Position numbers and translations under genes: made by a program. A stretch of 64,000 bases of DNA from a virus, in IMG/VR virus record IMGVR_UViG_3300035698_022762, positions 1-64,000 of that record, one strand, 5' to 3'. Position 1 is the first letter of the stretch. The number at the start of each line of letters is the position of its first letter. The notes below the pieces were generated by a model. That model did no database searches. It had not been told where the DNA came from and saw only the letters and a list, made by a program, of their open reading frames with translations. This document shows, in pieces, positions 58,263 through 64,000 of this stretch.

Positions 58263-60899
58263 ATGTTAAATGAAATAGATTTGAGAATATGGGGTAAATG
58301 GGATGACAAAAAGAAAGCCATGCATCCTGCTTTGCTCCATATGGTAGATACAGGTTTTGTCATACAAGAACTGCTTGGAACTTTTAGCACTCATGAATTG
58401 GATTTTGTTTCCAAAAAAATGAATTTAAATATAAATGAAGCAAAAACATTTTTGACATTCATGATGCCGTTGCATGATTTAGGAAAAATAACACCAGAAT
58501 TCATCAAACAAGTAGAGGAAGCTGCAGACTTAATAAAAGATGACTACTGTTTCTACCCAAATGATGAAAAAATAAGACATGAATTGTTTTCGATGCATCT
58601 TTTGAAAAACGTTTTGCTCCCTGATTTCGCAGCGAAAAATGACGTATGTGCTGTTATTGGTGGACATCATGGGAAGTTTTCCATTCTGCCATCAAAGTTT
58701 CCTCCCAAAAAAATAAAAAGATTCAAAAGATTTTGTGGTCGTGATGACGAAAAATGGTGTAAACAACAAAAATTGGCTTATGACTTTCTAACAAGCATAT
58801 TTCCAATAAGTGAAGAAATTCTAAATAAAGTAAATATAAATCCAGATTTATATTTCTTTTTAGCTGGTTTGATTTCTAATGCAGATTGGATTGCTTCTGA
58901 CAGCAATCTATTCCCCCTTTCTGGTTTCGACCAATCCCTTGATCAATATGTTGTGAAAAGCAAAGGATTGGCAAAAAAAGCCTTTAAAACAATTGATTGG
59001 AATCTTTGCAAGATTAAGAACCAACAGTTCGATGAAACTTTTGGGTTCCTTCCTTATCCTTCTCAAAAAATAATCATAAATGAAATAGAAAAAATAACAT
59101 CACCATGTCTGATGATAATAGAAGAATCTACTGGAAGTGGCAAGACAGAAATAGCACAACATTCTGCGTCATTTTTAATGTCAAAACTAAAACATCGTGG
59201 CATTCAAATGTGGTCACCTACCAGAACAACATCTGATTCTGTTTTCAAAAGAATGGTTAGCTTTTTAAGAAAAACGGTTGATGGGAAAGCCAACATACAG
59301 CACATACATTCAAATTCTAAAAGAAATAAAGATTATTTAGAATTAAAAAATAAAGACAACGATGACAACGCCACTGTAGTTGCGAAATATTGGTTTTCTA
59401 GTGGCAGAAAAAGATTAATGTCGCAGTTTAGTACAGGTACTGTTGATCAAATAATGAAAGGGGCAATTTACAATAAATATTTTTACATGCCCCTTTATGC
59501 TTCTTTTAATAAAGTGGTGATAATTGATGAGATACACAGCTATGATGTGTTTATGGGCAATTTAATTGAAGTTTTAATTGAAAAATTAAAAGAAATGAAT
59601 TGCTCAATCATATTGCTGTCTGCAACTTTATCTAATTCAACACGTCGAAAACTAATTAATGCTTATGGTGCAGAAGCAAATGATGAGATCACGAGATATC
59701 CTAGACTTACAGTTTGTCAAAACAACAACTCTAACTGCACACAACTTTTTACACATAGACACAAAAAAATAAAATTAGAACATTTGCATTTAAATCCACC
59801 AACTCCACAAAAAAACGAAATAAAATCATATGACGAATTAGCACAAAAAGCATTATGTAAAATAGAAAATGGTGGGGCTATAAATATCGTTTGCAACACT
59901 GTAAAACAATCACAAAAAATATATAATGCTTTCAAGTCTCTTAATGCAAGTCCATTGTTGCTTCATTCAGGATTTACAAAGAAAGATAGAAGCAGGATAG
60001 AACAAAACATCATTGACAAATATGGAAAAGAATATAATTCAAAAAGAGATAAAACCATTGTAATAGGAACGCAAATAATCGAACAAAGTTTAGATATAGA
60101 TTTTGATTATACTTTTTCTTTCATCTGTCCTATAGACTTTTTGATACAAAGACTAGGAAGGTTGTGGCGTTTTTATAGAACAAATGAGTTTGAAATTCCG
60201 AATGGGCAAATTGGGTTTTCAGTTTTTAGCAAAACTCCAGAAGCCACCATAATTTATGAATATTCTGACGAAAAAGAATTAGAAAGTTATGGCATTTATT
60301 CGTCTTATATAATGCATTTAACTCAAAAAAATATAACTCCTTTAGACGAAGTGGTGTTGCCTGATATGACGGACTTGCTAATAAACAATGTGTACGAACA
60401 AATTGATATAGAATCAAACAATCAAGAAGAAAAATTGAAAAAAAAATACAATAAAGCTGAACAAGACGCCAATTCTGAATCCATAAAAGTTACTTTATCT
60501 AAAGACAACAAATACACGCTTAATGAAGAAAACAACTATGATGATTCAAACACTCGTGACATTAGTACGCCTACAATGAATGTAATACTATTGTTTAAAA
60601 AAGGTAACAATTGGACATTGGGGGAAGGCATGCCAAATATAAATTTTAGAAAAAAGGAATTCAGTAGCGAAGAAATAAATTTGATTACGCAGAATTCTTG
60701 CCCAATTTCAGGTAAACCATTATTTAATTATTTTAATAACAATAAATTTTCTGAATGGAAGAATATATTTGAATTAAAATATTATTCCATTTTGATATTA
60801 GAAGAAGATGGGAAACAAACAATCTACGGCGACAACTGGAAAGCAGAATTGCAATATGACAGTACTATAGGACTGTGTAAAAATGTTTTTTGGCAATGA
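58263..60899 (+). CDS. cas3: CRISPR-associated HD nuclease/helicase Cas3 (type I-E)
   Basis: HPALLHMVD, HDLGK, GGHHG, NADWIAS; TGSGKTE, GTVDQ, IIDEIH, LSAT, NTV, LHS, TQIIEQSLDIDFD, QRLGRLWR. Confidence 0.96.
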   Translation: MLNEIDLRIWGKWDDKKKAMHPALLHMVDTGFVIQELLGTFSTHELDFVSKKMNLNINEAKTFLTFMMPLHDLGKITPEFIKQVEEAADLIKDDYCFYPNDEKIRHELFSMHLLKNVLLPDFAAKNDVCAVIGGHHGKFSILPSKFPPKKIKRFKRFCGRDDEKWCKQQKLAYDFLTSIFPISEEILNKVNINPDLYFFLAGLISNADWIASDSNLFPLSGFDQSLDQYVVKSKGLAKKAFKTIDWNLCKIKNQQFDETFGFLPYPSQKIIINEIEKITSPCLMIIEESTGSGKTEIAQHSASFLMSKLKHRGIQMWSPTRTTSDSVFKRMVSFLRKTVDGKANIQHIHSNSKRNKDYLELKNKDNDDNATVVAKYWFSSGRKRLMSQFSTGTVDQIMKGAIYNKYFYMPLYASFNKVVIIDEIHSYDVFMGNLIEVLIEKLKEMNCSIILLSATLSNSTRRKLINAYGAEANDEITRYPRLTVCQNNNSNCTQLFTHRHKKIKLEHLHLNPPTPQKNEIKSYDELAQKALCKIENGGAINIVCNTVKQSQKIYNAFKSLNASPLLLHSGFTKKDRSRIEQNIIDKYGKEYNSKRDKTIVIGTQIIEQSLDIDFDYTFSFICPIDFLIQRLGRLWRFYRTNEFEIPNGQIGFSVFSKTPEATIIYEYSDEKELESYGIYSSYIMHLTQKNITPLDEVVLPDMTDLLINNVYEQIDIESNNQEEKLKKKYNKAEQDANSESIKVTLSKDNKYTLNEENNYDDSNTRDISTPTMNVILLFKKGNNWTLGEGMPNINFRKKEFSSEEINLITQNSCPISGKPLFNYFNNNKFSEWKNIFELKYYSILILEEDGKQTIYGDNWKAELQYDSTIGLCKNVFWQ

Positions 60900-60959
60900 C
60901 CTTTACGATTCGTAATTTGGTATTAGAATGAATGGAGTTCAAACAAGGAATTCATTCAT

Positions 60960-62998: not shown

Positions 62999-63010
62999 AG
63001 GAACTAAAAG

Positions 63011-64000
63011 ATGACAACTGTAAGTGTAAGCGTTCTTAAAACATATCCTATTTCAAGACCTAATGCAGATGACACAGGGCAACAGAAAACTACTGTTTTT
63101 GGTGGGACTACTCGTTCACGTATTTCGAGTCAATGTATTAAAAAGTCAATAAGACAATATTTTTCCGATAACTTCACCGGGGAAATGCATCAAAAATTCT
63201 GTGGTATCAGAACAAGCTATGTTAAATCCAAATTAATGGAGTTGTCAAAAACAAGAACTGACGATGAAAAGTTGTCAGATGATATTTCCAACATCATCAT
63301 CAAACTATTTTTTGACAGTAAAAAAGAAGCGAAAAGTGAAAAAACAAGTTATTTAACATTCACGTCTGAACAAGAACTAAACTTGATTTTGGATTTTGCA
63401 TTCGAACAAGCAAAAAAGTATAAATTAGATGATAAAAAATTCACTAGCACAATTAAAAAAGAATTCAAACCAACAAAGAAGTCTACTGTAAAGGGACTTA
63501 CAGTAGATGTGGCGATGTCTGGACGTATGCAAACAAATGCAACAAATTTTGAGGTAAGAGCCGCTTTGCAAATGTCACACGCTATTGGCGTTAATACGGC
63601 TTCTCTTGGATTTGATTACTTTACAGCAATAGATGACATGGCAGAGGAACGTGAAGAAACTGGTGCTGGCTATTTGAATAGTCTTTCGTGCAATTCTTCA
63701 TGCTATTATGGACATTTTAATATTTGTTTTGATAAGTTGGTTGAGAATTTAGGTGGGAACGTAGAAGCTGCTGCTGAAGCTTGCGTTGAATACATCAAAG
63801 CATTTGCAATAATCACGCCAAGCGGCAAGAAGAATTCTTTTGATCACAACGTCCTTCCAGAGTTTGTTATGGTTGAAATACATGAAGGAGAAAGTTTTAA
63901 CCTTGTTGGGGCGTTTGAAAAACCTATTTGTCCAGATGACAAACACTCGCCATCTGATCTTGCCGTTGAAAAGATCATGCAATATAAAGAAAATCTTAAT
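63011..64000 (+). CDS. cas7: Type I-E Cascade backbone Cas7 (Cse4/CasC), truncated by window end (not in ORF track)
   Basis: Hand translation: PNADDTGQQKTTVFGGTTRSRISSQCIKKSIR, VDVAMSGRM, AALQMSHA, DYFTAIDD, GAGYL, PSGKKNSF, NLVGAFEKP; AAGGA RBS. Confidence 0.95.
   Translation, partial: MTTVSVSVLKTYPISRPNADDTGQQKTTVFGGTTRSRISSQCIKKSIRQYFSDNFTGEMHQKFCGIRTSYVKSKLMELSKTRTDDEKLSDDISNIIIKLFFDSKKEAKSEKTSYLTFTSEQELNLILDFAFEQAKKYKLDDKKFTSTIKKEFKPTKKSTVKGLTVDVAMSGRMQTNATNFEVRAALQMSHAIGVNTASLGFDYFTAIDDMAEEREETGAGYLNSLSCNSSCYYGHFNICFDKLVENLGGNVEAAAEACVEYIKAFAIITPSGKKNSFDHNVLPEFVMVEIHEGESFNLVGAFEKPICPDDKHSPSDLAVEKIMQYKENLN

Follow-up and report, generated by a model that had tools for sequence, protein, structure and literature searches.

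A type I-E CRISPR-Cas locus, complete and probably autonomous, on a probable huge-phage contig from salt-lake metagenomes

Phage-encoded CRISPR-Cas (short palindromic repeats, clustered and regularly interspaced, with their associated proteins) is an established category. The type I-F system of Vibrio phage ICP1 (Seed et al. 2013), covered in two reviews (PMC11656645, PMC9040626), targets PLE, a host island (PMC11656645); some jumbo-phage CRISPR systems seem fully functional, and that of ICP1 alone has been studied experimentally (PMC11656645). For huge phages, Al-Shayeb et al. 2020 (PMC7162821) describe CRISPR systems that almost all do without Cas1, Cas2 and Cas4, many of them without interference genes; a section of that paper is given over to the CRISPR-mediated interactions of these phages. 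Here we describe a type I-E locus on the viral record IMGVR_UViG_3300035698_022762, a single contig of 80,388 bp whose first 64 kb (positions 1 to 64,000) form the window analysed; window numbering continues as contig coordinates. The window end interrupts cas7, and the remainder of the locus lies on the same contig past position 64000. We consider it highly probable that the contig represents 80 kb of a huge-phage genome from salt-lake metagenomes and carries a complete, autonomous I-E locus, used most likely against foreign DNA. To the established category it adds its completeness, its strong divergence, a variant in a sibling phage and evidence of acquisition at the population level.

Inspection of the locus (Table 1) reveals eight cas open reading frames (ORFs), all of them intact. 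The positions and canonical I-E order of cas3, cas8e, cas11 and cas7 given in the preliminary description are borne out by strong Pfam and NCBIfam matches. Its term 'interference module' is too modest for a complete system that is predicted to be competent for adaptation, as the contig downstream also holds cas5e, cas6e, the adaptation genes cas1 and cas2 and an array, all present and intact. All seven I-E-specific NCBIfam models (Cas8e, Cas11, Cas7e, Cas5e, Cas6e, Cas1e and Cas2e) score over their curated cut-offs, and for Cas3 both the cas3_core and cas3_HD models pass (TIGR01587, 188 bits against a cut-off of 102; TIGR01596, 60.6 bits against 43). Against PRK09694, the E. coli-type full-length model, Cas3 reaches 310 bits, under the cut-off of 569, because the protein is divergent. 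Alignment of Cas3 to solved structures (4q2c, 4qqw/6c66) shows the HD-nuclease motifs H-x4-H, HD, H, HH and D to be kept together with superfamily 2 (SF2) helicase motifs I (GSGKT), II (DEIH), III (SAT) and VI (QRLGR), in agreement with the full motif set reported earlier. The Cas6e residues His26 and Tyr23 and the G-rich loop are likewise kept in alignment to T. thermophilus Cse3, and the Cas1 active site (E, H208, D-x2-D) is conserved relative to 8hi1. Two local features were observed among the Cascade genes. The cas11 gene starts with TTG and overlaps cas8e, and cas8e carries a perfect in-frame 39-nt tandem duplication at 62187-62264 that produces a 13-residue repeat near the Cas8e C-terminal region; no read-level variants were seen at this duplication. 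A type I CRISPR-associated transposon of the Tn7-like kind was ruled out, given that Cas3 and Cas1-2 are present and that the sole TnsA-like N-domain sits in a Zn-finger ORF; TnsB, TnsC and TniQ were not found among the contig ORFs scanned. By every criterion that can be applied to sequence the locus is a member of subtype I-E, and CRISPR RNA (crRNA)-guided interference dependent on a protospacer-adjacent motif (PAM) is predicted for it.

Comparison with canonical I-E systems (Cascade/Cas3 of E. coli K-12, and structures 4qqw, 6c66, 1wj9 and 2y8w from T. thermophilus and Thermobifida fusca) indicates identical gene content and order. The GTTCCCC start of the repeat, its hairpin and 8-nt handle, the spacers of 32-33 nt and the conserved catalytic residues are also shared. 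Unlike those systems, the locus is encoded by a phage, probably a huge one, its Cas7 and Cas1 are at most 38% and 41% identical to named bacterial proteins, and its repeat measures 27-28 nt, where that of E. coli I-E has 29 nt. The likeness to ICP1 I-F is of another kind: both are complete phage-encoded class 1 systems with their own Cas1/Cas2 and array, both occur in only some members of their lineage, and both show signs of natural spacer turnover. ICP1 is a cultured phage of ~125 kb with a subtype I-F system, whereas the present phage is uncultivated, from a salt lake and probably of the ~500-kb class, and its subtype is I-E. Set beside the huge-phage systems of Al-Shayeb et al. 2020 (PMC7162821), the ecological and genomic setting is the same, but the gene set is full.

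The array adjoins the leader, which in turn adjoins cas2e. Repeats and spacers alternate with a period of 59-60 nt, and the repeat forms a hairpin (CCCCAT/ATGGGG) with a 6-7-bp stem. Repeats at the far end, including the terminal one, are degenerate, which is consistent with a leader lying next to cas2. Spacer 10 is duplicated along with its repeat in the contig (67145-67237) and present in single copy in L004, a contig from JGI, and spacer 14 is cut to 19 nt (67384-67402) in both, features that point to recombination and deletion within the array. The exact repeat was found neither in IMG/VR nor in 185,579 species genomes, and Rfam CRISPR-DR families gave no match to it. One Rfam hit to the leader, StyR-143 (25 bits, far below the gathering score of 176), was rejected; StyR-143 is an RNA lying antisense to an ORF of Salmonella and is no CRISPR leader (PMC4361174).

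By analogy with the I-E systems of E. coli and Thermus, the array would be transcribed from the leader, and every repeat would be cleaved by Cas6e at the base of its CCCCAT/ATGGGG hairpin. Cascade, predicted to consist of Cas8e, Cas11, Cas7, Cas5e, Cas6e and the crRNA, would then find PAM-flanked protospacers and form an R-loop, upon which Cas3 would be recruited and the target DNA degraded processively. New spacers would be placed at the leader-proximal repeat by Cas1-Cas2. During infection, such a system would most likely act against foreign DNA in the same cell, whether from rival phages, from other mobile elements or from defence elements borne by the host.

Near-identical genomes from the lake differ in their arrays, and the differences are polarised. 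The contig L004 has spacers 10, 12, 13, the shortened 14 and 15 in common with the present contig at the trailer end, and on its leader side at least 2-3 spacers differ; one of these variant leader-side spacers also occurs as a variant joint in metagenome run X4. A second JGI contig, L005, has an identical leader followed by a different first spacer. Where genomes are at least 99.5% identical, old spacers held in common beside divergent leader-proximal ones are what polarised acquisition should leave behind. This pattern indicates that the array has still been gaining spacers, in a polarised manner, through what would be the phage's own Cas1-Cas2.

To what kind of genome the locus belongs can be read from both flanks. 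T4-type morphogenesis genes on the contig include those for a baseplate wedge, large terminase, portal, prohead protease and gp23 capsid protein. At the amino acid level the capsid protein shares 70.6% identity with its counterpart in the uncultured 595-kb phage LR756511.1 and 78% with that in IMG/VR contig IMGVR_UViG_3300035698_018317 (hereafter G001; 225 kb, CheckV completeness 44%); a further 80 IMG/VR loci, on contigs of up to 533 kb, encode capsid proteins 75-81% identical, and among them the 533-kb record is rated 100% complete by CheckV. We take the LR756 accessions to come from the huge-phage survey of Al-Shayeb and colleagues; LR756511.1 is not in the main text of that paper. Taken together, these relatives suggest a phage of the huge or jumbo class (at least 200 kb) whose complete genome would measure roughly 500-600 kb, a size extrapolated from them to a contig of 80,388 bp. 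Gene-for-gene collinearity with G001 (37.6-90.6 kb) extends over 53 kb, from contig position 1 to 55,892, and collinearity with LR756511.1 covers 20 kb, at contig 36-56 kb. On the right flank, the two genes of a divergent pair (78,327-80,030) have homologues lying side by side in LR756511.1 and likewise in G001. As judged from gene content and synteny, the cas locus thus lies within a phage genome and has phage genes to its left and right; flanking direct or inverted repeats, which would identify it as a discrete mobile element, were not found.

The same evidence bears on whether the cas genes were brought next to phage sequence by a chimeric assembly or a prophage-host boundary, that is, whether they come from a bacterial chromosome. 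Synteny with relatives does end ~2.4 kb past the capsid gene, some large relatives are labelled 'provirus' in IMG/VR, and the four salt-lake metagenome runs that hold the region show loose ends in several spots, one of them, present in each run, before contig position 68,793. A junction near 56-58 kb, named in the preliminary description as the point to inspect, was looked for and not found. Contigs of the four runs cover 52-72 kb in every bin at an even depth of 3-5x, mostly at 99% identity or above, and single short contigs bridge the capsid gene to the endonuclease ORFs (run X3, record 18) and ORF2 (57120-58250) to cas3 (run X4, record 27), the spans bridged by independent contigs being 55,877-58,187 and 58,107-58,863. 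From the JGI set, L005 runs from cas5 to the first repeat at 99.95% identity and L004 from the array to tnpB at 99.56%. With phage-backbone homologues on both sides, a uniform composition and no bacterial housekeeping gene anywhere on the contig, an origin by misassembly or at a prophage boundary is largely refuted and in our estimate extremely improbable.

Composition was also compared directly. The cas genes have a GC content of 32.0%, and their GC content at third codon positions is 26.7% against 25.3% for the backbone, matching the earlier statement that they are as AT-rich as the phage; relative synonymous codon usage correlates with the backbone at r 0.97 and tetranucleotide frequency at r 0.96. 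The cas composition is ameliorated and indistinguishable from that of the phage backbone.

The protein sequences point away from any near bacterial source. Among 5.8 billion proteins, the best non-self matches to Cas7 are unnamed and 43-48% identical, the best named bacterial protein reaches 38%, and the best full-length match to Cas1 reaches 41%. A FastTree phylogeny groups the phage Cas7 with four metagenomic proteins as a separate long-branch clade with 100% SH-like (Shimodaira-Hasegawa-like) local support, and the named bacterial I-E proteins sampled for the comparison all fall outside it. One clade member is the Cas7 of G001 itself and another is 91% identical to it; P0001, P0002 (on a 54.9-kb contig) and P0005 belong to the clade. 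The G001 locus is a variant in a sibling phage, within the same clade and with identities of 44% for Cas7, 44% for Cas5 and 37% for Cas3. Its order is cas3, array, cas8e, cas11, cas7, cas5, cas6, second array (L009 4807-12934), and its repeat is related (GTTTTCCCTACATGCGTAGGGGTGTCCC against TTGTTCCCCATGTAATGGGGGTGTTCC here). In contrast to the present locus, it has two arrays, it lies ~75 kb from the G001 capsid gene and not beside it, and no cas1 or cas2 occurs within the 225 kb of G001. A gene for a Tpt1/KptA RNA 2'-phosphotransferase is found ~3 kb upstream of the G001 I-E locus. Four more IMG/VR viral contigs (L010-L013), one a 246-kb record classed as provirus, encode a distant I-E Cas7 with 24-30% identity.

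I-E Cas7 is absent from LR756511.1 and from five other large relatives, including the 533-kb record rated complete, and in 43 relatives whose sequence extends at least 3 kb past the capsid gene, no cas genes follow it. These absences and the placement in a variable region make I-E a sporadic accessory trait of the huge-phage clade. The sporadic distribution, and an island lying in a variable region where homing endonucleases and an IS607-like element also occur, speak for a recent capture by the phage of a host I-E locus that serves it no function. Against such a passenger stand a codon usage and a tetranucleotide profile indistinguishable from those of the backbone. Nor does the locus have a near bacterial relative by Cas7, by Cas1 or by the repeat; all eight ORFs are intact, as are the catalytic residues, array content turns over within the population, and the sibling G001 keeps a related locus. 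We accordingly regard a functionless recent capture as very unlikely. A further reading is that the clade represents a deep phage-resident I-E lineage in huge phages of ~500 kb, of which the present member would be autonomous and acquiring spacers in the lake and G001 a derived form with two arrays that is without the adaptation genes; on this we are evenly divided.

The spacers carry a compositional signal of their own. The 17 unique spacers have a mean GC content of 43.6%, against 33.6% for the contig, a value reached in 0 of 20,000 resamples, and the spacers of G001 show the same shift (44.8% against 36.8% for its own genome). All spacers were compared with the contig, G001, part of LR756511.1 and the 80 relative loci, and gave only chance matches of 12-16 nt. 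A spacer GC content far over that of the phage, with no matches to the phage or its relatives, points to foreign DNA of higher GC content, and not to this phage clade, as the probable source. The first base of the spacer unit is T in 14 of 17 cases and C in the other 3. In E. coli I-E the last repeat base is PAM-derived, and the T/C start may be a PAM-derived last repeat base here as well.

Several points weigh against an autonomous, active system directed at foreign DNA, one of them the lack of protospacers. The whole array, compared with 50,697 phage records, gave only chance matches of 38 nt at 85%, and compared with 72,556 plasmids it gave nothing; four spacers, in which every 6th position was set to N, gave nothing in IMG/VR, and one spacer gave nothing in 185,579 species genomes. 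The mapping of spacers and PAMs proposed in the preliminary description therefore produced no protospacer and hence no PAM, and the targets suggested there (competing phages, other mobile elements or the host chromosome) stand as candidates. The self-match search covers 80 kb of a genome of probably ~500 kb, so that self-targeting elsewhere is possible. Sigma-70-like promoter sites are no commoner than chance and so do not delimit the transcription unit. The run data consist of low-depth contigs and not raw reads, and the four runs may share one sampling campaign, with one of them perhaps the source sample. Between-sample differences in the array could, moreover, stem partly from spacer loss or recombination beside gain.

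The protospacer results also bear on what the system would be aimed at. It may, like that of ICP1, be directed mainly at the host (anti-phage islands, satellites or the chromosome) and not at rival phages, a reading that differs from the one above in target only. Spacers well over their own genome in GC content in both phages would fit such a target, as would the lack of any spacer match among the 50,697 phage records, the 72,556 plasmids, IMG/VR (for four spacers) and sibling phages; the sole phage CRISPR system studied experimentally, ICP1 I-F, has a host island as its target (PMC11656645). The single spacer compared with species genomes found nothing there, and we hold a mainly host-directed system to be a tentative possibility, plausible and somewhat doubtful. 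Use against foreign DNA in general, by a complete and autonomous I-E locus, is the interpretation we prefer.

Table 1. Coordinates and supporting matches for the I-E locus and its left-hand neighbours; positions above 64000 lie past the window, on the same contig.
Feature	Position	Strand	Match or description
gp23-type major capsid protein (left landmark)	54435..55892	+	PF07068 E 5e-81
Homing-endonuclease-like ORF	56099..57118	+	PF14311 E 4e-46; PF08722 E 1.7e-8; phrog_559 'HNH endonuclease'
ORF2, phage backbone gene	57120..58250	+	phrog_559/phrog_3339; left edge of CRISPR-Cas island at its end
cas3, fused HD nuclease, SF2 helicase and Cas3 C-terminal domain, 878 aa	58263..60899	+	PF18019 E 1e-32; PF22590 E 2.5e-31
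cas8e (cse1/casA), large Cascade subunit, 505 aa	60960..62477	+	PF09481 E 7e-48; TIGR02547 92 bits (cut-off 70)
cas11 (cse2/casB), small subunit, separate gene, 174 aa	62474..62998	+	PF09485 E 6e-13; TIGR02548 37 bits (cut-off 28.5)
cas7 (cse4/casC), 370 aa	63011..64000, on to contig 64123	+	PF09344 E 2e-82; TIGR01869 236 bits (cut-off 178)
cas5e	contig 64123-64767	+	TIGR01868 106 bits (cut-off 69)
cas6e	contig 64754-65329	+	TIGR01907 83 bits (cut-off 45)
cas1e	contig 65333-66199	+	TIGR03638 271 bits (cut-off 216)
cas2e	contig 66187-66456	+	TIGR01873 42.6 bits (cut-off 33)
Leader, AT-rich, 122 nt	contig 66457-66578		adjoins cas2e
CRISPR array	contig 66579-67489		16 repeats of 27-28 nt (TTGTTCCCCATGTAATGGGGGTGTTCC plus Y), 15 spacers of 32-33 nt

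The region between the capsid gene and cas3 measures 2,371 nt, in line with the ~2.4 kb first reported. The accompanying phrase 'just after the capsid gene' holds for that distance and not for gene order, as two ORFs intervene (56099-57118 and 57120-58250). Directly 3' of the capsid gene lies a hairpin resembling an intrinsic terminator (55917-55949, a 14-bp stem followed by a T run), and no comparable terminator was found between ORF 56099 and cas2. A promoter-like motif 5' of ORF 56099, TGTTATAAT, is not over-represented. Promoter motifs being uninformative, co-transcription of ORFs 56099-58250 with cas3 is neither supported nor refuted.

The first of the two ORFs encodes three treble-clef Zn-finger domains (DUF4379) and the TnsA-like nuclease N-domain mentioned above. 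Partial homologues are confined to 2 of the 80 relatives, for which reason the product is probably a free-standing homing endonuclease, and the ORF is probably a selfish insertion and not a Cas accessory. The second, ORF2, differs in its distribution. Its C-terminal ~210 residues have tblastn matches 170-1,500 nt past the capsid gene in 23 relatives (30-55% amino acid identity), none of which has cas genes after the capsid gene. Homologues in this position place ORF2 in the backbone, and the island accordingly begins at cas3. In 2 other relatives it is the N-terminal ~100 residues that find their match at this position, so that ORF2 seems to be a fused or extended form here. Both ORFs match separate parts of one PHROG family of 607 positions, phrog_559.

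On the other side of the island, 3' of the array, an IS607-like pair occupies contig 70881-76806 on the minus strand (8881-14806 in L001, whose coordinates plus 62000 give those of the contig). It comprises a TnpA, a serine recombinase with a MerR helix-turn-helix, and a 408-aa TnpB with OrfB_IS605 and Cas12f-like TNB domains; between the two genes lie a 198-aa ORF and a 1,051-aa SF2 helicase. The sole match to this helicase is that of jumbo phage Tunturi_5, at 38%, and it has no match in LR756511.1. Variants of tnpB dense in single-nucleotide polymorphisms, together with loose ends, suggest other copies in the lake. Closer to the array, at contig 68,793 (L003 16793), each of the four salt-lake runs has a contig that departs from the present sequence just 5' of this position, and a hairpin (68777-68806) adjoins the point. 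The departing sequence, like the other loose ends of the runs, is absent from the contig and from G001; it may represent a related genome having the same downstream module.

A textbook-complete I-E system with turnover at the leader end of its array, on an uncultivated and probably giant phage, makes a case for asking what viruses use adaptive immunity for. No subtype is better understood than I-E, and since it also lends itself to heterologous expression, the case is a tractable one; it offers a divergent, AT-rich system with a sibling variant to compare. Within the phage clade, I-E appears as a sporadic accessory in a variable region beside the capsid module. If the reading as a deep phage-resident lineage is true, the locus would be a second natural model, after ICP1 I-F, of a virus running adaptive immunity of its own, and for I-E it would be the first.

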